This document shows, in pieces, positions 1,959-46,499 of a DNA stretch of 64,000 nt. The translations under genes were made by a program, and so were the position numbers. The stretch comes from a virus (Duplodnaviria; Caudoviricetes). The notes beneath the pieces were generated by a model. That model saw nothing but the letters and a program-made list of their open reading frames with translations, ran no database searches and was not told the DNA's origin. Location: IMG/VR virus record IMGVR_UViG_3300025679_000005; one strand, 5' to 3'. Every line of letters starts with the position of its first letter. Within the stretch, counting starts at the first letter, position 1.

Positions 1959-4900
1959 CCTCAGAGGCTATTGGCTTCTGAGGTGAATTGAAACGTCTGC
2001 GTAGGTGCTCGTGGCGAGCGTGACCGATTCCGCCTCAGAGGCTATTGGCTTCTGAGGTGAATTGAAACGGGTTGTTCGCAAAACACAGCTAGACCGGCTC
2101 CGCCCCTCAGAGGCTATTGGCTTCTGAGGTGAATTGAAACAAGGAAGTTGAGCGGGACGCGGCCGATACCATGAAGCCTCAGAGGCTATTGGCTTCTGAG
2201 GTGAATTGAAACGTGTCAATCGCATCCAATTGCAGTTGGGCCTTGCTCCCTCAGAGGCTATTGGCTTCTGAGGTGAATTGAAACCGGCTGGATATCGGCC
2301 AATGCCTCGATGTCTCCAATCCTCAGAGGCTATTGGCTTCTGAGGTGAATTGAAACCAGAGCGGGGACACTGTCGCCTCGATTGCTACGGGGCCTCAGAG
2401 GCTATTGGCTTCTGAGGTGAATTGAAACGCCAGCACTACCGATCCAACCGCTTTGACGGTTAGGGCCCTCAGAGGCTATTGGCTTCTGAGGTGAATTGAA
2501 ACTACTGGGTGCGCGATCTTGAGCGCCTCCTAATCCAGCCTCAGAGGCTATTGGCTTCTGAGGTGAATTGAAACCTGGACGGCTATCAGCTCGCTCAAGC
2601 AGACCGAGCCAACCTCAGAGGCTATTGGCTTCTGAGGTGAATTGAAACTCCATGGACACGGCAATGTGTACTTGCCAGCCGTTGCCCCTCAGAGGCTATT
2701 GGCTTCTGAGGTGAATTGAAACCAAACCTATAGCGAGATCACAGCCGCTGTCAGGGCCCCTCAGAGGCTATTGGCTTCTGAGGTGAATTGAAACATCATG
2801 ACCTCTACATCGGGGCCTACAAATCCGTTGCCCCTCAGAGGCTATTGGCTTCTGAGGTGAATTGAAACGTTAGCCGGGGCTTGATTTGGGACGCAATGTC
2901 GGAGCCTCAGAGGCTATTGGCTTCTGAGGTGAATTGAAACAGCGTGAGCTTGTCGGGATGATCTAAGGCCCAACGCCTCAGAGGCTATTGGCTTCTGAGG
3001 TGAATTGAAACGAGACGGAAAGCCGTTTAACGATTTGATCCCCGCTCAGCCTCAGAGGCTATTGGCTTCTGAGGTGAATTGAAACCTACAGTCAGGACTG
3101 ACGTATAGGCGGGCTACCTCGACCTCAGAGGCTATTGGCTTCTGAGGTGAATTGAAACACCATCGAGAGGTTGACCCAGCGGTTTGGCTTGAGCCTCAGA
3201 GGCTATTGGCTTCTGAGGTGAATTGAAACAGGGTGGGGCAGGCGCACACCAGCTGCGTGCGCAGCCTCAGAGGCTATTGGCTTCTGAGGTGAATTGAAAC
3301 CAAAGCCCAAGAAAGCCAAGAGGAAGTAGTGGATTAGCCTCAGAGGCTATTGGCTTCTGAGGTGAATTGAAACGTCTGCAGCTCCTCGATTTTCTCTGAT
3401 GCGATCGATCCTCAGAGGCTATTGGCTTCTGAGGTGAATTGAAACAGGCGGGGAATGCCAAGTTGATCGCGCGGATCCAACCCCCTCAGAGGCTATTGGC
3501 TTCTGAGGTGAATTGAAACCATGGTGGGTTGCTTCGCCGGCCGTATGCTGGGGAGCCTCAGAGGCTATTGGCTTCTGAGGTGAATTGAAACGGGGCGTCA
3601 ACAGGGGACGGAACGAGAGTGAACGATTCCTCAGAGGCTATTGGCTTCTGAGGTGAATTGAAACTTGGTAACGTCGGTCGGCAGCTAGGCCGAACACACG
3701 GAGCCTCAGAGGCTATTGGCTTCTGAGGTGAATTGAAACTTGGCCTTTGAGGTCTTGGCCCTGTGCCTATCTTTGCCTCAGAGGCTATTGGCTTCTGAGG
3801 TGAATTGAAACAGCTACTATTTCCCGCTCTACATCCCAGCGGGCTCGACAGCCTCAGAGGCTATTGGCTTCTGAGGTGAATTGAAACTGGGGGATGCGTT
3901 TGGTCTTGGGCTTGCCCTTGGCATCCTCAGAGGCTATTGGCTTCTGAGGTGAATTGAAACCAAGAAGCGTTTGAACTTGATCGGATCCGCACTGTGCCTC
4001 AGAGGCTATTGGCTTCTGAGGTGAATTGAAACACTTACAACACGTTGCCGGAGACCTGGGAGAGCACCCTCAGAGGCTATTGGCTTCTGAGGTGAATTGA
4101 AACGCGGGGTTTGCGGGGGGCATACCCTCAGCGGCTGACCTCAGAGGCTATTGGCTTCTGAGGTGAATTGAAACCAAGAGCGTCGGGTCATGAATCTGCT
4201 CAAGAAGACATCCTCAGAGGCTATTGGCTTCTGAGGTGAATTGAAACGGCCAGCTTCGGAGCCGCTCTTGGATGTCCTCCGACCAAGCCTCAGAGGCTAT
4301 TGGCTTCTGAGGTGAATTGAAACGCTACGAGGATCCAGGCTAGCTGGCGAATGAACCACCTCAGAGGCTATTGGCTTCTGAGGTGAATTGAAACTAGGGC
4401 AGCCCCTGAGGGGACGGAGCATCCCGTGAGGCCTCAGAGGCTATTGGCTTCTGAGGTGAATTGAAACGCGAACTGCTTGGCCAAGGGAGCGACAGCCTGA
4501 GCGACCCTCAGAGGCTATTGGCTTCTGAGGTGAATTGAAACGAGCTGCAACTGAGCTGCCTGGGATGGCCCAGTAGAGCCTCAGAGGCTATTGGCTTCTG
4601 AGGTGAATTGAAACGACCAACGACCCTCGCCGAAGTGTCGGGACTTCCCGGCCTCAGAGGCTATTGGCTTCTGAGGTGAATTGAAACAGTCCTTGGCGTT
4701 GCCATTCGAGGCAGCCATCGACCCCTCAGAGGCTATTGGCTTCTGAGGTGAATTGAAACATGTAATATAATACGGTATGGAACCTACACACTTAACCTCA
4801 GAGGCTATTTGGCTTCTGATGTGAATTGAAACAAAGACCTCGACACTGGTGGTCGTCGTCGACCCTCAGAGGTCTCTGATCTCTGAGGTGCGTTGAAACG

Positions 4901-7599
4901 ATCGAAAGCGTGAGGTGCTATCAGAGGGTCTATGATCTCTGATCTCTGAGGTGGATTGAAACACACGGATTCGGACCTCATGCTCCGTGTTGACTTCCCT
5001 CAGGGTCATTGATCTCTGAGGTGAATTGAAACCTCCGAATGCTCACGCCGGCAGAGCGTCGTCATGGGGAGCCTCAGAGGTCTCTGATCTCTGAGGTGAA
5101 TTGAAACGAGACGATCCAGGTCGTGGTCGCCACGTGCGGACAAGCCCTCAGAGGTCTCTGATCTCTGAGGTGAATTGAAACGCTCACCTAGTGACCGAGG
5201 AAAAGAAGGTCGATGGCCTCAGAGGTCTCTGATCTCTGAGGTGAATTGAAACGATTCTGCCGCTCCCCCTAAGCGCTCATGTCGAGCGCCTCAGAAGGCT
5301 CTGATCTCTGAGGTGAGTTGAAACGATTCCCGTGTGCCCCGCTACGTCCAATCACGGACGCACCTCAGAGGTCTATGATCTCTGAGGTGAATTGAAACTG
5401 GTAAGAGCCGGTGGCGTATACCTCGAAGTCCGCACTCCTCTGATCTCTGAGGTGAATTGAAACAGGCAGGGGTCACAGAGCTTGCGACCGACCTTGACCT
5501 CAGAGGTCTATGATCTCTGAGGTGAATTGAAACACTTGCTTCGTGGTCATGCCAGGTCGGGGGACACTCAACCTCAGAGGTCTAGGATCTATGATCTCTG
5601 AGGTGAATTGAAACGAATGGGCACGTTGGAATGCACTAAGATGGTTGGCGGCCTCAGAGGCCTATGATCTCTGAAGGTGTATTGAAACAAGGCACTGCGA
5701 GTCTTTGACGCTTCCGCGAAGGCTGTCTCAGAGGTCTATGATCTCTGAGGTGAATTGAAACCTCACGAGCAACAAGAGGCCACGGGCGCAGCCCCGGCCT
5801 CTTTGGTCACTGATCCCGGAGGTGAGTTGAAACTTCAGGAGAACTCAGAGGCTATTGGCTTCTGAGTTGAGTTGAAATTCCTGCTGAATCGTGATGCCTG
5901 TAGCCTAAGTGAGTTGAAACAGCCGTAGCGAATAGCCATGTGAGTAGAGAGGCTACCTGAGGTCAATGATCTCAGAGTGAGTTGAAACGTCGTGATGGAG
6001 CGTGTGCACTCGACGGTCAGAGCCATCCTCTGAGGTCTTTAATCCCCGGAGGTGAATTGAAACGCCAGCGCGACCGTTACGAACGATGCCCGGAGGTCCC
6101 TCTGGGGTCTTTGATCCCGGAGGTGAGTTGAAACACAGACACTCTTGGGCTTTAACATCGTTCCTCAGAGGTCTATGATCTCTGAGGTGAATTGAAACAC
6201 TTCGGAGGCGGCCTTTGGAGGTCACATGTCTACTACCCTCAGAGGTCTATGATCTCTGAGGTGAGTTGAAACAGGGCGGCGCTTCGACAGATGCTCCAAG
6301 ACAACGCACCTCAGAGGTCGTTGATCTCAGAGGTGAATTGAAACGGAGTCTGCTGAAGCAGATCGTCAATAGCGATCTTGGTGCCTCAGAGGTCTCTGAT
6401 CTCTGAGGTGAGTTGAAACACGTGGAGCGGCAGGCCAGCTAGGCTTCTCCGGATCCCTCAGAGGTCTCTGATCCCTGAGGTGAATTGAAACCAGGTACGG
6501 CCAACGTACCCCTTGGCGTGGGACTTCTGAGGTCTCTGATCTTAGAAGTGAATTGAAACATGAAGCCCAGCTCGTCCAGCGCCTTGATGTGCGGGGCCTC
6601 AGAGGTTCTGAGGTGAGTTGAAACGACTCCATCAGTGGACGCTGCGTCCACGCCGGATCCTCTGTGGTGTCATTGATCTCAGAGGTGGATTGAAACCAGG
6701 CCGCTCAGCGGTGTACCTATAGAGGTCTGAGGTCGGGGATCTCGTGAATTGAAACCTGAGCCAACCTCGTTGGACTGCTGGGTATCGAAGGCTTCTGAGA
6801 TCAATGATCTCAGAAGTGAGTTGAAACGCGAGCTGCTCTCACCGTGTCTGACAACCCCGCGGATCCTCTGGCTCACAGAGGTGAGTTGAAACATCAGAAC
6901 TGGCCTGCGAAGGTCGAAGGTCGTCTAGTCCTCTGGGGTCATTGATCCTGGAGGTGAGTTGAAACGTCTGGTCGGAACCCTATAGTGATCGTCAGAATTG
7001 GCCTCCAGGGTCTTTGGATCCTGGAGGTGAGTTGAAACATCGACGACGGCCCGGGAATGCTACCAGATGGCAACCTCAGAGGTCTCTGATCTCTGAGGTG
7101 AATTGAAACGCCGTGGTGGGCGCGTAGTCGCCAGCCTTGATCAAACCTCAGTGGTCTCTGATCTCTGAGGTGGATTGAAACGTTGGGGTGCGATGGGCTG
7201 CATCGGTCCTCAGAGGTCTATGATCTCTGAGGTGAATTGAAACCTCTGAGCTGAGCCGTACGGGTGCAAACCGATCCACTCCTCAGAGGTCTATGATCTC
7301 TGAGGTGAATTGAAACGCGGGTCAGGAATCCGTAGAACAAGCGCTCCAGGAGCGGCCTCAGAGGTCTCTGAGGTGAATTGAAACAACGGTCTGGTGTGGG
7401 ACTGCAAACCGCGGGTGGCTGCCTCAGAGGTCTCTGATCTCTGAGGTGAATTGAAACGTGAGCGAACACAAAGTGCTCTCAACCGCGACCGAACACCTCA
7501 GAGGTCTAGGATCTCTGAGGTGAATTGAAACAGAGGTAGTCGGCAGAGAAGATAGAATTCGGCTTCAGGGCCGACTTTCTTCCTGAAGTGTATTGAAAT
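1959..7599 (+). CRISPR. Type I-C-like CRISPR array, about 80 repeats of 36 nt in two repeat variants
   Basis: CCTCAGAGGCTATTGGCTTCTGAGGTGAATTGAAAC (about 40 copies, 1959-4833), then CCTCAGAGGTCT(C/A)TGATCTCTGAGGTGAATTGAAAC and degenerate variants to ~7599; ~33-40 nt spacers; ATTGAAAC end; adjacent to cas5. Confidence 0.98.
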
Positions 7600-7646: not shown

Positions 7647-7710
7647 TCCCAGAATGAACTTTCGGTGTATGGGGCCTTAAGCAGTTCGCGCCCCAGCCGT
7701 TAGGAAGAGC

Positions 7711-21148: not shown

Positions 21149-21218
21149 ACTTAAGTGTAGACAATAAAGGAATTATTGGACTGCACCAGGAAACCTCTGT
21201 TCGGTGTATGAACACTAG

Positions 21219-22216: not shown

Positions 22217-22240
22217 ATTCTCCGGCCTGGTGTATATGAC

Positions 22241-22276
22241 CCAGCAACACCCGCTCAGGGGTTCCAATACTGTGAC
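22241..22276 (+). CRISPR. Solitary copy of the array-3 repeat behind a phage promoter
   Basis: CCAGCAACACCCGCTCAGGGGTTCCAATACTGTGAC, 33/36 identical to the array-3 repeat; GGTGTATATG at 22229. Confidence 0.85.
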
Positions 22277-29014: not shown

Positions 29015-29079
29015 GGGACCTCCACTTTGGCACGTCACAAGAGCAATAGCATTCCCTGTTTTTCCGGTGTATTAGCCTG

Positions 29080-30462: not shown

Positions 30463-31677
30463 TCATAAAGACACCCATTCTTCTCTGGACTTCGGCTGAG
30501 AACCTACCTGCCGTAAGGCCTGTAGGTTCTCGTTGACCGCGCTCAAACCGAGCGCTTTAATGTTACACCCCGCATTCTGGTCACGATCCATGACGAGACC
30601 ACACTCGGGGCAATTGTGGATGCGGAACCGTAGTCCCTTGGGGACGACGGTTCCGCACGCATGACACCTCTGTGTAGTTCCTCGTGGATCAACTCCTACC
30701 GCTAACTTACCAGCTTCTTCCGCTTTGCATTTTAGGCAGTGGATTGTAATTGACCAGGACGCATCCGAGATTGATTTCGCTAGATTGATCTTCGGCTTCC
30801 CATCTCTGGAAGGACCTCTGGAAGGACCTGAGATCATCTCCTGAATCGAGAGGTCCTCGTAACAGACGATGTCATTCGTTTCAAAGAGGGACTTAGCCAG
30901 CTTCCTAGCGTGATCTAGCCTCTGATTCTTGATGTGAGCGTGAGCCCGCTGGACTAGGGTCTTGGCCCGTCTCCTAGAGGAGCTGCCACGGCGCTTGCGT
31001 TGCATAGCGCGTTGGCGTTGGGCCAAAAGGTCTTGCCCCGCCTTGAAATAACGAGGATTCTCGATCGTTGTTCCGTCATCAAGGGTACCGAAGTGGGTGA
31101 GTCCTAGGTCAATGCCGACGGACTTCGTGGGGTCGATCACGACCTCAGGGGCTACTCCCAAATCGCACTGGAAGATCACAAACCATTTACCGGCTTCTCT
31201 TCTAACTGAGACATCAAGGATCTCTCCTTTATGGGGCCGATATTGGTTGAATTTGACTAGGCCTAGCTTGGGGATCTTGACTCTGGCAGAGGAAACCCTC
31301 TTGATCTTAGGCTCAATTTTCGTAGTAGTCTGAAGAGCAAACGAGTCGTAGCGCTTGTAGCTACGGAACCGCGGGAAGCCAGGGGCTTCGCCCGTCTTCA
31401 CGCGGCGGAAGAATGCCTTGAAGGCATCGTCTAATCGCTTGAGCGGAGATCGAAGGATCGTGGCTGGGATCGCTTCGAAGTCAGGGTCTTGAGATCGAAT
31501 GATGGTCAGGGACTTCTGTTGATCATAGAGAGTCAGACTCTTTTTGAACTTTAGGTAGTGACTTTTCCGCTCTTCCAGGGCGCCGTTGTAGAGGCTATTG
31601 CACATGAAGAGCCAGTTGGCCATTCTGGCCTCCTGGTCCTTCGTGGGATACAGCGGATAACGAAAAGAGCGAATCAT
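30463..31677 (-). mobile_element. tnpB: IS200/IS605-family TnpB, no tnpA
   Basis: N-terminal FRYPLYPTKDQ HTH, SVGIDLGL, CYEDLSI, VDPRGTTQRCHACG...CPECG...DRDQNAG; hairpin TTTCATGGGC/GCCCATGAAA (31703-31735) upstream. Confidence 0.93.
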
Positions 31678-32624: not shown

Positions 32625-32870
32625 ATGGCATTCGTACGTGAGTTCAAAGACACTTTCACCTGTGACAACCCACAGTGAGGCGGTGACAACGGCCGTTTCT
32701 CTGAGGTGGTCGTTCAAAAGACTGAGGACATACTTGACGCCAACGAATCCGTAGGGATTCAAGGACCTCAGCTGCCTAAAGATTGGGGCATCTTCCACTA
32801 TGCCAATGTTCAAGTATATTGGTGCCCCAGCTGTTCTAGGACTCTCGTAGGCAAAGGGAAAACCCCTTGA
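32625..32870 (+). pseudogene. Small Zn-ribbon gene with in-frame TGA at an expected Cys
   Basis: GGTG-TATAAT 9 nt before ATG; MAFVREFKDTFTCDNPQ*GG...LPKDWG...WCPSC; TGA at 32676-32678; true stop overlaps next start. Confidence 0.65.
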
Positions 32871-33289
32871 AAAAACGTAAGCGTCGATTCTATCCGGGGA
32901 TGCTCGTTCGCATTGCCAAGGACTGCCGCCCAGTCTCAGTATTGGAGCCCCTGAGCGGGCATCCCCTGTCTATACACCGTCCAGAAGGGGCTGCTACAGG
33001 GGCTGAAGCCGTTTACGAAGGGCGGTTCAATTCCAAGACCGGACGACGCTACAAGGGGCCTAGAGGCCTTGGAATGCCCAGACTACGCCTGGAGGATGGT
33101 TCGCACATTTGGGGGTATGAGTGCTACTGGCTGCCCCTGAAAGAAGCCCAGGCCGTCGAAGCCAGTTTGGGCATACACATACCCTCCAGAGAGGCGAAAG
33201 AGTGGGATCGCCTGGTCGACGACCTCCAACGTAGGACTCAGATAGGGGAAACTCCTGAGGCATCCCCTACGGCCACCCTTACGGAGTAG
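32867..33289 (+). CDS. Hypothetical protein containing a degenerate array-3 repeat
   Basis: TTGA-coupled ORF. Confidence 0.6.
   Translation: MKKRKRRFYPGMLVRIAKDCRPVSVLEPLSGHPLSIHRPEGAATGAEAVYEGRFNSKTGRRYKGPRGLGMPRLRLEDGSHIWGYECYWLPLKEAQAVEASLGIHIPSREAKEWDRLVDDLQRRTQIGETPEASPTATLTE
32933..32959 (-). CRISPR. Degenerate solitary array-3 repeat inside a CDS
   Basis: GTCTCAGTATTGGAGCCCCTGAGCGGG, 25/27 identical to array-3 repeat. Confidence 0.7.
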
Positions 33290-33533
33290 GGGACGGTCCC
33301 AACACAGGCGATGAGTTGGTATTGCCAATGGGCGTAGCAGCAGTCCTTGCCGGCCTGCTTGTGAGCACCCCAGGACTTGCCGAATCGCTTCCAGGCCCAT
33401 CCCTCAGCCAAGGGCGTAGTCGGAGGCGGGTCCTCAACGGGCTTTACAGGCTCGGGGGCGATGTCAGCCGCTACCCAGGCAGGAAGCCCCAGGCGTTGAT
33501 CACAGAGAGAGCAATGGCCTGCTTGGCCTTCGG

Positions 33534-33862
33534 GTCTCAGTACTGGAACCCCTGAGCGGGTGTTGTTGGAAGGGCTATGGACCAAGTACGTGCTCACAAA
33601 GGTCTCGTCTCAGTACTGGAACCCCTGAGCGGGTGTTGTTGGGGGTTCGCGTGCGGTAAATCCCCTAATGTCCGAGAAGTCTCAGTACTGGAACCCCTGA
33701 GCGGGTGTTGTTGGCCCTGTTACGTCGAGCAGCTCCACCTCGTCGAACAGCAGTCTCAGTACTGGAACCCCTGAGCGGGTGTTGTTGGCAAGGACCGACA
33801 CGCAAACGAGATCGATTCCGTACCCAGTCTCAGTACTGGAACCCCTGAGCGGGTGTTGTTGG
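33534..33862 (-). CRISPR. CRISPR array 3, 5 repeats and 4 spacers, type V-like
   Basis: Repeat CCAACAACACCCGCTCAGGGGTTCCAGTACTGAGAC (minus), CTCAG/CTGAG stem, GAGAC 3' end; spacers 36-38 nt. Confidence 0.97.
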
Positions 33863-33865
33863 AGG

Positions 33866-34423
33866 TCATTGAGCGGCCTCATCACATCCAGTAGTTACAC
33901 CGGACTTTGCGAGCGCCTCGCCAGTCCGTCGACAAATCTCCTTCGAGGCTCCAAAATCCCGATCGTAAGTGCGCCCACAATTAGGACAAGCAAGGATCAG
34001 ACCGTCAAGCTTTCCAGTGGGTTTTATGCAATGGGGGCACACCTGCGACGTTTTGCGAGCGGATACCGCAAAAACCTTGGCACCCGACCGCTCGCAGATC
34101 TGTTTGAGCAGGTAGGGGGCAGAAACATCTCGGTTCTGACGTTTACGCCTAGAACTCTCCGAGGCCGTATCAAGAGCACGCATCTGTGTGCTCTTGAGGT
34201 CCTCTAGGCCGATAGCCACATACATGGCCGCCAGTTTTTTGGCGGCCTTACTGAGAATGTCCAAACGAATATTCTCAATCCGTCGGCGAGCCTTGGCGAT
34301 TTGTTTTTCGGTCAGGTGCTCGTAAGCCACCCAAGAGGCTTCCTCTGTAGTGAGTACTCCCAGTTCGGCCAGATGCCTTCGGTATTGATGCCGATTTCTC
34401 ACAGGAAGGTTGGCGTTTTTCTT
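33866..34423 (-). pseudogene. 5'-truncated TnpB/Cas12-like effector
   Basis: Retains AIGLEDL (RuvC II), SARKTSQVCPHC...CPNCG...DRDFGAS (Zn + RuvC III); no RuvC I or recognition lobe; frame runs into a repeat. Confidence 0.8.
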
Positions 34424-34453
34424 GTCACAGTATTGGAACCCCTGAGCGGGTGT
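34424..34453 (-). CRISPR. Partial array-3 repeat at the truncation point
   Basis: GTCACAGTATTGGAACCCCTGAGCGGGTGT, same variant as the 22241 copy. Confidence 0.85.
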
Positions 34454-34498
34454 AGATCACATAATGTACGTTATCAAGCGTCCAGTCAACCCCATTGA

Positions 34499-34951
34499 TC
34501 ATGCCACGGCGCCACGTTTTTTATTGCGATTGCGCTCGGTCTTGCCAGTGACCTTGGTCACGGTCTTGCCGAAGTTGGCGTTCTTCTGCTCCTTCTCGAT
34601 GCGATTGTCGATGTCCGTGTCATGGCGCTGGGCCATGTCCGTGACGATCCACTCCTCGGCGTTCTCCAGGAGAGTGGAGATGATCAAGGCGAACGGGGTC
34701 TCCAGACCCACATGTACCATCGAGGTGCGGTCCTTGTTGGCCCGAATATGGGGAATGAACTTCTCGATCGGCGTCGGGGAGTTGCGGTCCGTGATGATGC
34801 GGCCGATGCGGAACGAGTACAGGACTTCGGAGCCGCGGGCGGGAGCCGTGCTGATTTCGACTGCGTAGCCCGACTTCTGCTCCTTACAGGTGTGGGTGAC
34901 ATTCCAGACTGGTTTGGCGTGGGTATTGGCTTGGTACGTGTTGTTGGTCAT
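34499..34951 (-). CDS. Hypothetical protein with basic C-terminus
   Basis: 150-aa ORF. Confidence 0.7.
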   Translation of the reverse strand: MTNNTYQANTHAKPVWNVTHTCKEQKSGYAVEISTAPARGSEVLYSFRIGRIITDRNSPTPIEKFIPHIRANKDRTSMVHVGLETPFALIISTLLENAEEWIVTDMAQRHDTDIDNRIEKEQKNANFGKTVTKVTGKTERNRNKKRGAVA

Positions 34952-35051
34952 GCATTCCTCTAACGGCTGGGTTTCGGATAGCTTTAGGGCTATGGGACAA
35001 ATACACCAAAGCGACGGTCCTTGCCCAGGTTATGTTGGTGTAGACCCTTAG

Positions 35052-35333
35052 ATGACCGACAGAGAGATTCACCAAACCATAATGAAGGTAGTCGCCCCGA
35101 ACGCCATCGATTGCAGTGACTTCAATAAGGTCTATGACGAGGCAACCGCCCTAAGGGACTCCGGAGCGGAAGAAGCCGCGATCCTGGCTTTCATCTCGGA
35201 ACAGCTCCCCTCCGCCATCATCAGCCCGCTCGAAATCGAGAGAATGAAGGGGCGGGGGAGGCTTCATGTGATAAGCGCAGGCCCCATGTCGAATAACGAC
35301 GGGGATGTCAGCCCGTCCAGGAAGCCGAACTGA
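35052..35333 (+). CDS. Hypothetical protein
   Basis: GGTGTA motif 9 nt before ATG. Confidence 0.6.
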   Translation: MTDREIHQTIMKVVAPNAIDCSDFNKVYDEATALRDSGAEEAAILAFISEQLPSAIISPLEIERMKGRGRLHVISAGPMSNNDGDVSPSRKPN

Positions 35334-35382
35334 CCAGTAAAGTTGCCCGACAATTCTTCTGTCCGGTGTATAGGCCGTGACC

Positions 35383-38137: not shown

Positions 38138-38141
38138 TTCA

Positions 38142-38161
38142 GTCTCAGCGTACTGAGCAAT
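38142..38161 (-). CRISPR. Minimal CasPhi repeat (20-nt hairpin core)
   Basis: ATTGCTCAGTACGCTGAGAC, identical to the 3' 20 nt of the CasPhi repeat. Confidence 0.85.
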
Positions 38162-38184
38162 AAAAAAGCTTTGTGGGCTCGCGG

Positions 38185-39024: not shown

Positions 39025-39030
39025 TGGACT

Positions 39031-39057
39031 GTCTCAGCGTACTGAGCAATCAAAAGG
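39031..39057 (-). CRISPR. Solitary CasPhi repeat (27 nt) 6 nt upstream of the recombinase ATG
   Basis: CCTTTTGATTGCTCAGTACGCTGAGAC then AGTCCA-ATG. Confidence 0.9.
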
Positions 39058-39327
39058 CTTAGGCTGGTTTACCCCCGGAACGGTGACTTCGATGGGGGTG
39101 ATGCCGTTGTGTGGGACAACGAGGCAGCTCCACGGGTAGGTCTCTTTGTCGACACCTAAGGCCGTAGTGACTTTCACGATCCACATGTCGAGAAGGTGGC
39201 GGGAAGCCAGACCGCAGATGACGCCTGTCCCAGAGACCGGACCCATGGTGAACATCACTGGTTGGCCGTCTACGTAACAGGGTTTGACTTTGCCTTGGAG
39301 GTCGGTTTGCAGTTCGAAGTTGTACAT
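39034..39327 (-). CDS. Hypothetical protein lying between two CasPhi repeats
   Basis: 97-aa ORF with SH3-like composition; stop codon lies inside the repeat. Confidence 0.6.
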   Translation of the reverse strand: MYNFELQTDLQGKVKPCYVDGQPVMFTMGPVSGTGVICGLASRHLLDMWIVKVTTALGVDKETYPWSCLVVPHNGITPIEVTVPGVNQPKPFDCSVR

Positions 39328-39377: not shown

Positions 39378-40148
39378 GTCTCAGCGTACTGAGCAATCAA
39401 AAGGCTTCGCAGGCTGGGTCTGTCGCGAGCTGGACCAATACGGTGACGTGCTTGTCTCAGCGAACTGAGCAATCAAAAGGTTTCGCAGGATCCAGAGCTA
39501 CCAGGCGCTACAACGGAAGTGGCATCAGTCTCAGCGTACTGAGCAATCAAAAGGTTTCGCAGGAGGCGGTAGTCCTTGATGCTATCGTCGGCAAAGTCTC
39601 GTCTCAGCGTACTGAGCAATCAAAAGGTTTCGCAGGGTCGGGGCGGCGGGGGCAGATTCATCAGACCAAGTACGTCTCAGCGTACTGAGCAATCAAAAGG
39701 TTTCGCAGGAGTGGCCCATAGACCTGGTTCCCTTGGGCGTCCCTCTTGTCTCAGCGTACTGAGCAATCAAAAGGTTTCGCAGGGCCAGGGGCCGGCGGGC
39801 CGTTGTACTGGCCCGGACGAGTCTCAGCGTACTGAGCAATCAAAAGGTTTCGCAGGTTCCTTAGTGGGACTCTTAGAGGATCCTATAAGTAAGAGTCTCA
39901 GCGTACTGAGCAATCAAAAGGTTTCGCAGGGTCGGGTGTTGGAGTCGATGAGGTTGGCTTAGCGTACGTCTCAGCGTACTGAGCAATCAAAAGGTTTCGC
40001 AGGCCCCGACTCCACGGGATCATGTTGGGGATCGATCCTGTCTCAGCGTACTGAGCAATCAAAAGGTTTCGCAGGGCGTCGTGTTCATCGATCACAACTA
40101 CAGGGATCCCCTGTCTCAGCGTACTGAGCAATCAAAAGGTTTCGCAGG
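39378..40148 (-). CRISPR. CasPhi array, 11 repeats and 10 spacers
   Basis: Repeat CCTGCGAAACCTTTTGATTGCTCAGTACGCTGAGAC; 3' end matches the CasPhi repeat family; directly downstream of casPhi. Confidence 0.98.
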
Positions 40149-40239
40149 TCGCACGTCAGAAACAGTGAATTTTCAAAGACCTACCGAATGCTTTGCGAGC
40201 GGTTCGGTAAATTAGAGATCAGCAGGGGGTATTACACCG

Positions 40240-42570
40240 TCATTCAGCGGCTTCAGCATCTTCTTCTGGCTTAAAAGCAGCTTTGCGAGCGCCTACGCTC
40301 TTTTTGGCATCACCGGACCGCTCGCTTTCTGGCTTAGGCATAGGCTTGCCGGTCAGAGCGACTCGTTCAATGTTGTCCGTCGCGATCTCAAGGTCAGCAT
40401 GAGCTACAAAGCCGCACTTCTGGCATGCGAACCGTTCTCCGTCCCGATTGGCCTTGTCACAGTGCCCACATTTGGTACAGGTGATGCTGGTCCGGTGGGG
40501 GGTTACTTCAATGGTTGGGACCCCCTTGTGGGCCCCCAATTCGGTCAAGGACTTGTGGAAGGCTTGCATGAACCAACGATTCTCCCTCTTCTTGATGAAG
40601 AAAGCGTCCCATCCGCCATCAGCCCATTTTCCGTTCCCATGCATCATCTTGATATTGAGGTCTTCGAAGGCCATAACGACGACCTCACATTGAGAGGATT
40701 TTGCTGCCTTGTGTCGCAATTGATTGAGAATGCGCTTCGTCAGTTCTTGTTTCCAGGTTGAGAGTCGGAGGTACTCGGGAGAAGTCCTCTGAAGGTCCCA
40801 TTGTGCCTCCCGATATGCTTCGGCAGCCTCCGGACTCACTTCTATTCGAACACCCTCAGTTCCCTTGAATTTGATGTCTCGTCGCAACATCTCGGGCCTA
40901 TTTTTGGGTTTGAGGGTAGCTACTTTCCGGTCGCCGCCCTTCTCAAGATAGGCCGTAGCAAGGAATTCTGTGTATGGAGTCATCTTGTCCCAAGCGATCA
41001 TCTCCGGATTGAGCCCTAGTGCGGCGCACACCCTAGCCTTACAGAGAGCTGGGGTGTCGTTTTTAGCCCTTAGGATCTCTGACTTATGCTCTGGAGATAG
41101 TCGCTCAACAGCCAAATTGGCCAACTTGTCCCGTAGACGATCACTGGCCACTCGATATCTAGCGATCTCTTTCCCATCGCTGCTGTCATTCGACAGTAGC
41201 TCTCGCAATAATGTCTCGTGGGATAGCTGGCCGTCGCTCAATTGGGTTACCCTAGAGACTTTGGCGGCAATAGGATTGGTTTGACCCAGGTCAATTGATA
41301 CTAGAACCACAGGCCCCGATTTTGTCAACTCGGACAGGATTTCAGGAGCGTTCTTTGTCTTCACCATTTTGGCAGAGCAAGCTTGACCCGCCTTGTAGAT
41401 AAAAGTGCAGACGCCCTGCCGCATGTCGATAGAGGGGTCCCCCGTGAACAGGCTTAGCAAGTCAGGGATCGTGGACTTTTCCTTCAGCAATTTCCGATAG
41501 CGAGCATTTCGCAGCAACCCTCGAATATCGATGATGACCCATTCGTCTTGGAAGCGCATCAATACAGGGATCGCACCTTTGAAGCGCCCCGATTGGATCT
41601 GATCTGTTCTCGAATTCTTCCGGTTTGGTGTTCCGGACCGTTTGGAGCACGTAGCCTTAGGCTTGTTAAGACTTGCCGAGTACCAATCTCGACGGCGCCT
41701 GTTCTTGCGACGATTGAGCAGAGGATGCTGCCACTCGGGCACATACCCCGGCTGTCCCTTTGGAATGGTCATGCGATCGTGAGGCAAGTAGTCCGTGAGG
41801 GCCTCAGCGGACTCTTTGGCAAGGCATCCGCTAGGTAACCCAATAAAGTCACTAGGGCAGGATTTGATCACTACTGCCTGATAGCCTGGAATCGTTTGGT
41901 TCACTCCCGGAGGATGAATCAAGTATCCTCGTTCATCATGGGCTTTCTCCTCCACGAAGGTAGCCTCTTCTCCTGCTTCCTTCCGGCGCTTCGTCTTCGA
42001 CAGATTCTTCTCGTTGCGGTTCTCAACCTTTTTGAGTACGCCCTCTCGAATGCTGATAGCCGATTTGATGAGGGCGTTCTGTGCCTGAGCGTGGAGGCTA
42101 GGGGCGTCCAGTCCCAACACTTCATAGAAGGCAGCTCGGGTTTCCTCATTGAGCTTGGATTTGCCATCAACTTCTAGGGAGGCTACCGCTTCGTTGAAGG
42201 CCGTCTCTGACAGACCATCTTGTTTGGGACGACCCTTGGTAGCGGGGATCCCGAAGATCTTCTCCTGGATTTGACGAGAAACTCGAACGAGGTCCCATTC
42301 GATAAAGGGCCTGCTTTGAGCAATTACGAAGGCTTTGGCGGGCGGTTTAACGTCCTTGAGCTTTGCCTGACCCTTGCCAGTCAGGTAGCTGATGACGGCT
42401 TCGGGTCCGCCATCTCTCAGCTTCTTGCCAGCAATCTTGTAATCCTGGGACTCAAATTTCAAGCCTGGGAAATGCGCCCGCAAAAGCAAAGACAATGGAG
42501 AAGGGGGTGTGGTTTTATTGCTCATGTGCTCTCTGGTCGAAACGGCCGTATTTGACATTTCTATTTGCAA
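40240..42570 (-). CDS. cas12j: CasPhi (Cas12j) type V effector; start probably ATG 42558 or the next Met
   Basis: HFPG, IDIRGLLRNARYR, FTGDP, VSIDLGQTNPI (RuvC I), AFEDLN (II), KKRENRWF, HRTSITCTKCGHC...CQKCG...ADLEIA (III): recognisable CasPhi signatures. Confidence 0.96.
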   Translation of the reverse strand: MQIEMSNTAVSTREHMSNKTTPPSPLSLLLRAHFPGLKFESQDYKIAGKKLRDGGPEAVISYLTGKGQAKLKDVKPPAKAFVIAQSRPFIEWDLVRVSRQIQEKIFGIPATKGRPKQDGLSETAFNEAVASLEVDGKSKLNEETRAAFYEVLGLDAPSLHAQAQNALIKSAISIREGVLKKVENRNEKNLSKTKRRKEAGEEATFVEEKAHDERGYLIHPPGVNQTIPGYQAVVIKSCPSDFIGLPSGCLAKESAEALTDYLPHDRMTIPKGQPGYVPEWQHPLLNRRKNRRRRDWYSASLNKPKATCSKRSGTPNRKNSRTDQIQSGRFKGAIPVLMRFQDEWVIIDIRGLLRNARYRKLLKEKSTIPDLLSLFTGDPSIDMRQGVCTFIYKAGQACSAKMVKTKNAPEILSELTKSGPVVLVSIDLGQTNPIAAKVSRVTQLSDGQLSHETLLRELLSNDSSDGKEIARYRVASDRLRDKLANLAVERLSPEHKSEILRAKNDTPALCKARVCAALGLNPEMIAWDKMTPYTEFLATAYLEKGGDRKVATLKPKNRPEMLRRDIKFKGTEGVRIEVSPEAAEAYREAQWDLQRTSPEYLRLSTWKQELTKRILNQLRHKAAKSSQCEVVVMAFEDLNIKMMHGNGKWADGGWDAFFIKKRENRWFMQAFHKSLTELGAHKGVPTIEVTPHRTSITCTKCGHCDKANRDGERFACQKCGFVAHADLEIATDNIERVALTGKPMPKPESERSGDAKKSVGARKAAFKPEEDAEAAE

Positions 42571-42604: not shown

Positions 42605-42666
42605 TCTCGATTGCTCAGTACGCTGAGACTGTGAGCCGCCCTTTTGATTGCTCAGTACGCTGAGAC
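42605..42666 (+). CRISPR. Two-repeat CasPhi mini-array divergent from casPhi, ~12-nt spacer
   Basis: TCTCG-ATTGCTCAGTACGCTGAGAC, TGTGAGCCGCCC, TTTTG-ATTGCTCAGTACGCTGAGAC. Confidence 0.88.
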
Positions 42667-42840
42667 AGCATTGGCAATGGCCTGAGCAACTCTGCGGATG
42701 TCTTCCCTGAGCTTGTCGGTAGGAGTTTCGTCGTAGACTCCTTCCCTGACCCATTTCACCTTTTCAGGCGGGATGTCGTCGAATTCAGGGAAGCAACGAA
42801 AGGTAGCTAGGCGGTGACGATAGCAGACAACAGCGTTCAT
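42652..42840 (-). CDS. Small hypothetical protein ending inside the mini-array repeat
   Basis: 62-aa ORF, ATGA-coupled to the upstream gene. Confidence 0.5.
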   Translation of the reverse strand: MNAVVCYRHRLATFRCFPEFDDIPPEKVKWVREGVYDETPTDKLREDIRRVAQAIANAVSAY

Positions 42841-43715: not shown

Positions 43716-43736
43716 GGTGGAGCCTATACACCAGTT

Positions 43737-46392: not shown

Positions 46393-46434
46393 GGCCCGAT
46401 CCTACACCGGTTCGCTAGGCTCCAGCTTCTCCTC

Positions 46435-46499
46435 GTCTCAGCGTACTGAGCAATCGAGAGCCTCACTCTACACCGTCTCAGCGTACTGAGCAATCAGCA
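46435..46499 (-). CRISPR. Two-repeat CasPhi mini-array with a 15-nt spacer and own promoter
   Basis: TGCTG-ATTGCTCAGTACGCTGAGAC, GGTGTAGAGTGAGGC, TCTCG-ATTGCTCAGTACGCTGAGAC; TCGGTG-TACTAT immediately upstream. Confidence 0.9.

Follow-up and report, generated by a model that had tools for sequence, protein, structure and literature searches.

Organization of the locus

The window, by which we mean the whole 64-kb stretch of DNA analysed here, contains on its minus strand the 3′ part of a type V effector gene that runs directly into a short CRISPR array. Start motifs, a leader box and a repeat copy surround the pair, and two further solitary repeat units (SRUs) lie elsewhere in the window. The features are as follows.

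33534-33862, minus strand: CRISPR array of Cas12m (type V-M) repeat type, 5 repeats and 4 spacers
33534-33569, 33607-33642, 33679-33714, 33753-33788 and 33827-33862: the array repeats, 36 nt each
33866-34402, minus strand: 5′-truncated cas12m, 178 codons with a GTG start, corresponding to about residues 395-572 of the 572-aa homologue P0005
33895-33901, minus strand: phage gene-start motif GGTGTAA, 32 nt before repeat 1 and within the 3′ end of the gene
33905-33915, minus strand: leader box CGCTCGCAAAG, with exactly 42 nt between box and repeat 1
34424-34453, minus strand: SRU2, repeat positions 7-36, 45 bits, abutting the first homologous codon of the fragment
34461-34489, minus strand: sigma-70-like promoter match (TTGACT, 17 nt, CATTAT) ending 7 nt before SRU2, a consensus match only
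22241-22276, plus strand: SRU1, full length, 48.8 bits, between convergent genes
32933-32960, minus strand: SRU3, repeat positions 9-36, 23 bits, E 6e-4

All five array repeats are identical, whereas shuffled sequence yields none, and the four spacers, each unique, measure 38, 38, 36 and 37 nt in transcription order (minus strand). The stop codon of the gene fragment (33866-33868) is separated by 3 nt from repeat 1, which starts at 33862; these coordinates bear out an earlier sequence-only reading of the region, which had described a clean five-repeat array 3 nt past the gene. The array spacers had no match in the 64-kb window, none in IMG/VR as exact 24-mers, and a single, chance-level match by blastn against the INPHARED phages.

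The gene fragment retains two helices, the RuvC-II glutamate, the TNB zinc ribbon (CxxC...CxxC) and the RuvC-III DRD motif, with nothing N-terminal of RuvC-II, so that the same reading's account of a gene that keeps RuvC II, zinc finger and RuvC III and lacks RuvC I and the N-terminal lobe is confirmed on the open reading frame. Because the WED and REC lobes and RuvC-I are missing, the fragment cannot be an effector. Gene callers run on the source contig start instead at an internal GTG (34330), preceded by a Shine-Dalgarno-like GAGGAA stretch, and predict a product of 154 aa.

The fragment belongs to the Cas12m family

The closest intact relative, P0005 (572 aa), is 71% identical over the whole fragment; the intact relatives also include P0006, and the same search returned a protein of 567 aa at 43% identity. 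An exhaustive HMMER search returned 19 clusters at E<1e-30, mostly of 500-580 aa, and the full-length relatives of the fragment measure 510-580 aa. A family profile (A1) built from 17 full-length members matched Cas12m structures in the PDB nearly end to end (23vw_A, 9e-32, covering chain residues 46-569; UnCas12m4a, 2e-31; Cas12m2, 4e-25; GoCas12m, 2.5e-20), whereas TnpB, Cas12f and CasPhi aligned with it in the RuvC tail only. The AlphaFold model of P0005 (mean pLDDT 80.6) likewise found its best Foldseek matches in Cas12m2 and GoCas12m (1e-17 to 3e-16; top entries 8hhl, 8hio and 8pm4). By homology, the fragment is the C-terminal third (about 31%) of a Cas12m (type V-M) effector and not an insertion-sequence TnpB, and the ‘distinct small Cas12’ that had been suspected from the sequence is identified, by profile and by fold, as Cas12m. 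The fragment lies nearer to TnpB and Cas12m than to the CasPhi of the window, with which it shares 26% identity in the RuvC tail only.

Seen through Pfam, which reports on the fragment a Cas12f1-like TNB zinc ribbon, a weak OrfB_IS605 tail and nothing else, and with a genuine TnpB 2 kb away (P0004, a standard protein of 404 aa at 30463-31677), the locus might be taken for the remnant of an IS200/IS605-type TnpB element lying by accident beside an unrelated array. We find this hardly credible: both profile and fold place the nearest full-length proteins in Cas12m, the same repeat family occurs in every locus that can be read past the gene, and the 3-nt gap recurs in the nearest relative. An IS200/IS605 TnpB element itself, with a TnpB of about 400 aa, an omega RNA at its end and no CRISPR array, was ruled out, the homologues being proteins of 510-580 aa with a Cas12m N-terminal half and a linked array.

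In the family alignment the clade of the fragment has a D-E-D RuvC triad, which is the configuration of Cas12m clades 3 and 4 (PMC10442227); Cas12m orthologues with D-E-D, H-D-D and N-D-D triads bind DNA in a PAM-dependent manner without cleaving it and silence transcription (PMC11013384). As a compact D-E-D clade of 510-580 aa, the family may also be of interest to tool builders.

All ten invariant columns of the family alignment, in which the fragment was included, fall inside the fragment and are retained. This conservation, the open frame, a dN of 0.25 with saturated dS relative to P0005, and the Shine-Dalgarno-like stretch before the GTG at 34330 from which gene callers predict a product would be expected if the 154-178-aa tail were a functional small protein, for example a cas-derived protein anti-CRISPR that serves as a decoy for Cas12m crRNA loops or poisons the Cas12m of a rival. 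We think such a function improbable. Judged on the P0005 model, the fragment has lost three of the five strands of the RuvC sheet (strands 1-3) together with all that precedes them; the low dN/dS is mostly a record of the time before truncation, the values implying that most divergence is older than the truncation or that constraint continues; and the short homologues P0028 and P0033 are genes cut by contig ends, so that the short form is not recurrent.

Full-length homologues precede the same type of array

A degenerate repeat pattern retrieved 22 metagenome loci. Wherever the sequence runs far enough past a family gene to be read, an array with a repeat of the same family comes next (L001, L004, L014, L015, L026, L027, L030 and the window; 8/8), with gene and array in the same orientation at all eight. 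L004, L014, L015, L026, L027 and L030, the last obtained through protein P0028, each hold a full-length or contig-cut family gene with an array within about 60 nt. The gap between stop codon and repeat 1 is 3 nt in the window and in L001 and about 28-60 nt in the six other loci, and the contig of P0005 stops inside a repeat that begins 3 nt past the stop codon, as in the window. Full-length homologues beside this repeat, which the sequence-only reading had proposed to look for, therefore exist, and its view of a decapitated type V system stands, the fragment grouping with array-linked Cas12m genes and not with ordinary insertion-sequence TnpB.

Other searches returned nothing within their reach: the strict repeat pattern in JGI metagenomes, the loose pattern in IMG/VR and a related-locus search of viral contigs with P0005 alone gave no match; the spacers of the type I-C and CasPhi arrays did not match the Cas12m-family loci; positions 25-49 kb of the window had no near match among the INPHARED phages; and CasPhi had none there by tblastn.

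The array past the intact Cas12m gene of L004 (5740-6990) decays at its far end, with irregular spacers, some shorter than 20 nt, and with degenerate 5′ parts of the repeats beside a conserved 3′ stretch of about 28 nt, a pattern suggestive of an array that grew or decayed in the absence of a normal adaptation module. Five further loci (L011, L016, L022, L023 and L024, on contigs of up to 236 kb) gave lone matches to the repeat pattern with no family gene in the fetched stretch; these may be solitary units in other large elements, and a few of them may be chance matches.

The array repeat as a Cas12m scaffold

The array repeat aligns without gaps with repeats downstream of intact Cas12m genes elsewhere, and the gap-free alignment comprises 29 distinct repeats. 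It supports a fold with two helices, pairing positions 9-12 with 19-22 and 14-18 with 30-34: across the 29 repeats, 98% of the cells of these nine pairs are paired, compared with at most 45% when the partners are slid, and pairs 10-21 and 15-33 show changes on both sides. G13 and A35 are invariant, and a G:A pair adjoins the 3′ end in the Cas12m scaffold, whose 5′ end is dispensable. Such a pseudoknot cannot be shown by folding a single sequence; a covariance model (R1) made from the repeat alignment gave 48 bits for each array repeat, and Rfam had no match over 33300-34700. The Cas12m2 crRNA is laid out as a pseudoknot plus a stem, and the 5′-most 7 nt of its 36-nt scaffold are disordered, according to the structural report (PMC10442227); these 7 nt correspond to the part of the repeat that lacks conservation here. 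On this comparative evidence, the array repeat is a Cas12m-type pseudoknot scaffold and not a CasPhi-type hairpin.

Both the minus-strand repeat and the repeat of the CasPhi array (39378-40148) end in CTGAGAC. The CasPhi-like GAGAC end reported earlier is thus real, but the scaffold is of Cas12m type and shares with the CasPhi repeat only a 5-bp stem and the 3′ tail. Copies of the CasPhi repeat handle also lie outside the CasPhi array (38139-38171, 39029-39060, 42609-42668 and 46432-46496) and include an inverted pair at the start of casPhi.

A leader box at a fixed distance from the array

An 11-nt leader box with the consensus GCGCTCGCAAA occupies the same columns, 42 nt before repeat 1, in 8/8 Cas12m-family loci. 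Its position is fixed while the stop codon shifts from 57 nt (before the box) to about 3-4 nt before the array, and in most members the box overlaps codons of a conserved C-terminal E-A-L-A-K/N motif. A box identical to that of the Cas12m-type array in the window is found, again at 42 nt, ahead of the first CasPhi repeat (40191-40201), and the 3′ end of casPhi contains a third copy in a different reading frame (40281-40291). A box kept at 42 nt offers a handle on how type V arrays that lack adaptation are transcribed or extended.

The GGTGTAA that precedes the array belongs to a motif, GGTGTAW, of which the window has 30 copies where 8.0 ± 2.6 are expected, an about 3.7-fold over-representation. 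A start codon follows about 14 of the 30 at a distance of 5-11 nt, and two others stand just before solitary repeats. Example sites are 1663-1669, 7664-7670, 21203-21209, 29066-29072, 35365-35371 and 43726-43732. The motif may serve as a promoter of transcripts with a short leader or none, or else as an unusual signal for ribosome binding.

Both start motif and leader box do lie inside the 3′ end of the gene, as had been noticed, which supports only in part the suggestion that they would explain why the fragment is retained: because they are confined to its last ~55 nt, these signals do not account for 537 nt of open frame.

The shared box bears on the possibility that, once cas12m was lost, the phage's own CasPhi adopted the orphan array by recognizing the common stem and 3′ tail. 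The 5-bp stem and tail (GCTCAG...CTGAGAC) are identical in both arrays, the CasPhi array carries the leader box of the Cas12m clade at the same 42-nt distance, and CasPhi is intact and only 6 kb away. Such a takeover nevertheless seems improbable to us. The first helix (9-12 with 19-22), which is specific to Cas12m, has been kept, with covariation; the loop has 11 nt where that of the CasPhi repeat has 4; and the stem frame C-N-C-A-G / C-U-G-N-G is fixed clade-wide, which leaves an agreement in one pair that would arise by chance about once in 4-6 cases. A further argument, that both array-specific substitutions shift the repeat toward that of CasPhi, was dropped, only the stem change being structurally comparable and a G at loop position 27 being frequent among the repeats of the Cas12m clade.

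The gene breaks at a copy of its own repeat

The frame of the fragment opens at 34456, just after a TGA (34457-34459) and 3 nt ahead of the repeat copy at 34424-34453, which differs from the array repeat at two places within its 30 nt. Homology to P0005 begins at the codon after the repeat, where K-K-N-A in the window faces K-Y-N-A in P0005 (codons 384-387), and the tblastn alignment starts at 34426. That the gene is truncated right at a copy of its own repeat, as first claimed from the sequence, is hence borne out by the homology to intact P0005, which resumes at the codon directly after it. The ‘partial copy’ then seen at the start of the open frame is indeed a repeat of 30 nt, but since every structured position of the scaffold is kept, including the whole of pseudoknot and stem, SRU2 is a complete solitary repeat unit and not a fragment. 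The GAC that ends the repeat may coincide with a native Asp codon, in which case it would represent a 3-nt microhomology.

No N-terminal cas12m remnant was found anywhere in the 64-kb window; for this reason, and because the frame encodes only 178 aa, we regard the locus as a remnant and not as a working member of the family. At eight loci with intact family genes, no solitary repeat was found within 260 nt upstream, which leaves a pre-existing autoregulatory unit without support in the Cas12m clade.

Repeats are typical places for mis-joins, and a false join at the repeat, or at a cas12m-matching spacer, could have made the truncation merely apparent. A second assembler produced the same junction, a 5,228-nt Logan contig from a 2016 peat run spanning 33833-35100 with zero differences, an evenly distributed depth of 92 (flanks, 94) and no other way of joining the sequence, even if both assemblies probably derive from the same 2016 peat sample. 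There is also no loose end or other joint at 34424 except one leading to SRU1, and the solitary repeat has only 30 nt in common with any other locus. An assembly artefact is, in our judgement, very improbable.

Three solitary repeat units

A search of the window with the covariance model returned the five array repeats and three solitary units. Two of the latter stand just past the phage gene-start motif, GGTGTAT lying 5 nt upstream of SRU1 (22229-22235) and 11 nt upstream of SRU3 (32972-32978); SRU2 instead has the sigma-70-like match, one of three in the region against 0.7 expected. In SRU3, pair 9-22 has changed on both sides from A-U to G-C. SRU1 and SRU2 have the same 30-nt core, in which pair 15-33 is a U.U mismatch; this pair is U-A in the array repeats and A-U in the nearest relative. 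Compared with that relative, the solitary units look like an intermediate state and the array repeats like a compensated, homogenized one. This pattern of substitution suggests selection on the scaffold in the phage lineage, which would place a Cas12m there at least until recently, and the promoter linkage of SRU1 and SRU3, together with the pairing kept, implies that the scaffold was, or still is, used. SRU3 lies in a stretch of about 650 nt without a called gene on the source contig (32421-33073), on the minus strand and with its own start motif; its RNA would run antisense toward a T-run near 32870.

These observations lend weight to a reading in which array and solitary units together form a working guide set that is loaded by a full-length Cas12m whose gene lies elsewhere, whether in the other ~400 kb of the phage, in its host or in a second phage infecting the same cell; the truncated gene would then be a by-product. 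The five identical repeats, all with the substitution that restores pair 15-33, the compensatory change in SRU3, the position of two units 5-11 nt past the gene-start motif and the retained array leader would all be expected of a working set. On the other side, there is no intact Cas12m in the 64-kb window, where P0007 (473 aa) is TnpB/Cas12f-like and P0004 an ordinary TnpB; word-based searches, which are of low reach, of the protein collection that includes the proteins of this contig found no close paralogue or N-terminal piece; and the spacers are unmatched in the window, in INPHARED (blastn) and in IMG/VR (exact 24-mers). We hold a working guide set to be a plausible minority reading.

A more specialized arrangement, a guide-only Cas12m module whose effector was discarded and whose promoter-driven scaffolds would be loaded by a host or rival-phage Cas12m or by the phage's own CasPhi, we consider unlikely. 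If it were true, the first bases of the guide of SRU2 (34424-34453) would be cas12m coding sequence, and a rival's Cas12m would be turned on the rival's own cas12m, while the phage would be safe, the repeat occupying the PAM side of its own copy.

Two other observations concern RNA-guided systems elsewhere in the window. The TnpB/Cas12f-like P0007 (19727-21148, minus strand) has an intact-looking RuvC domain and no adjacent array, its closest PDB matches being the TNB region of CasPhi-3 and Cas12f, and it is a candidate for a further RNA-guided nuclease of the phage. Copies of the type I-C repeat also occur at 1958-2000 and 5497-7531, past the array reported by TRF (2032-4759 and 5217-5398), and reach within 180 nt of the start of cas5 (7711), some of them with 1-3 mismatches.

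A decayed type V-M locus

Taken together, the locus is a decayed type V-M system, consisting of a dead effector stub, an intact orphan array and dispersed scaffold units. We judge it highly probable that it represents the 3′ remnant of a phage-borne type V-M locus, made up of a repeat-to-gene join, a 178-codon tail and an array with its own start signals. A single DNA rearrangement would have fused a solitary Cas12m repeat, at its last base, with cas12m at about codon 384, removing the WED and REC lobes and RuvC-I and leaving behind the 178-codon tail, the native gene-to-array junction and the five-repeat array. In this clade the array leader lies within the last ~55 nt of the gene, as the 11-nt box at 42 nt, and the gene end in the window carries the phage gene-start motif in addition. 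Since the array kept its own start signals, we infer that it is probably still transcribed. Its crRNAs would act only with a Cas12m supplied in trans and would then, as with other Cas12m, direct DNA binding and block transcription.

The join itself could have arisen by recombination between the guide of a solitary unit and its matching site in cas12m, by strand transfer or repair at the repeat-guide boundary, or by a microhomology deletion. Recombination between phages and CRISPR spacers reportedly has a precedent in the work of Varble et al. in 2019.

Some features run counter to simple decay. The frame is open over 178 codons, every invariant residue of the family is kept and GAGGAA precedes the internal GTG; these features agree with a very recent truncation and also with a function that was retained. 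The three solitary repeats, with their pairing kept and one compensatory change, argue from sequence comparison that the scaffold is not simply decaying.

As a remnant, the locus adds type V-M as a third CRISPR type to a 464-kb huge phage that carries CasPhi and a type I-C system, and deletion is evidently a route by which phage-borne Cas12m loci turn over. The break at the repeat-guide boundary raises solitary repeats, or recombination between spacer and protospacer, as possible agents of rearrangement in phage genomes. What is new here is this break, the fact that no effector is visible, and the leader box, which keeps a fixed distance and also occurs before the CasPhi array; side results such as the leader box may outweigh the remnant itself in importance.

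Relation to known systems

With type V-M the locus shares full-length relatives that match Cas12m by profile and fold (MmCas12m2, GoCas12m, MsCas12m and UnCas12m4a; PMC10442227 and PMC11013384), a 36-nt pseudoknot-plus-stem repeat, an array directly past the gene in the same orientation, and no adaptation genes seen near the locus. It differs in that the copy in the window lacks about 68% of the protein, a complete effector of about 500-620 aa being absent, and in its setting in a 464-kb phage beside CasPhi and a type I-C system. Neither a leader box at a fixed distance nor solitary repeats are found in the available text passages on Cas12m.

The MvCas12m of myxophage MV-1, an intact protein of 610 aa, has been presented as the first phage Cas12m (bioRxiv 10.64898/2026.09.14.751636). 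Likened by its description, the gene studied here agrees with it in being a phage-encoded Cas12m with an adjacent array, no cas1, cas2 or cas4 and a D-E-D triad; unlike MvCas12m, it is a truncated remnant, and in an unrelated huge phage.

The solitary units resemble Racrs (PMC10651486), RNA anti-CRISPRs that copy the repeat of a target system under their own promoter and interfere with its effector, and crRNA-like regulatory mini-arrays (PMC10120712) in being single, promoter-linked repeats outside an array in a viral genome, one of which (SRU2) lies 21 nt before the first start codon of a cas gene remnant. In contrast to these, they are candidate units with a type V-M repeat, a type not reported in those surveys, neither the phage nor its host is known to have a cognate intact effector, and one unit forms the exact deletion junction of a cas gene.

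Compared with CasPhi (Cas12j) of huge phages, the locus has a 36-nt repeat with the same 5-bp stem plus AC and no adaptation genes, and it shares with the CasPhi array of its own genome the leader box 42 nt before repeat 1; whereas CasPhi has a single 3′ hairpin and an effector of 700-800 aa, the repeat here has a second helix and an 11-nt loop. Finally, like orphan arrays and cas pseudogenes, the locus pairs an array with an inactivated effector gene, but unlike them it broke at the repeat-guide boundary and has kept a uniform array and an intact leader.
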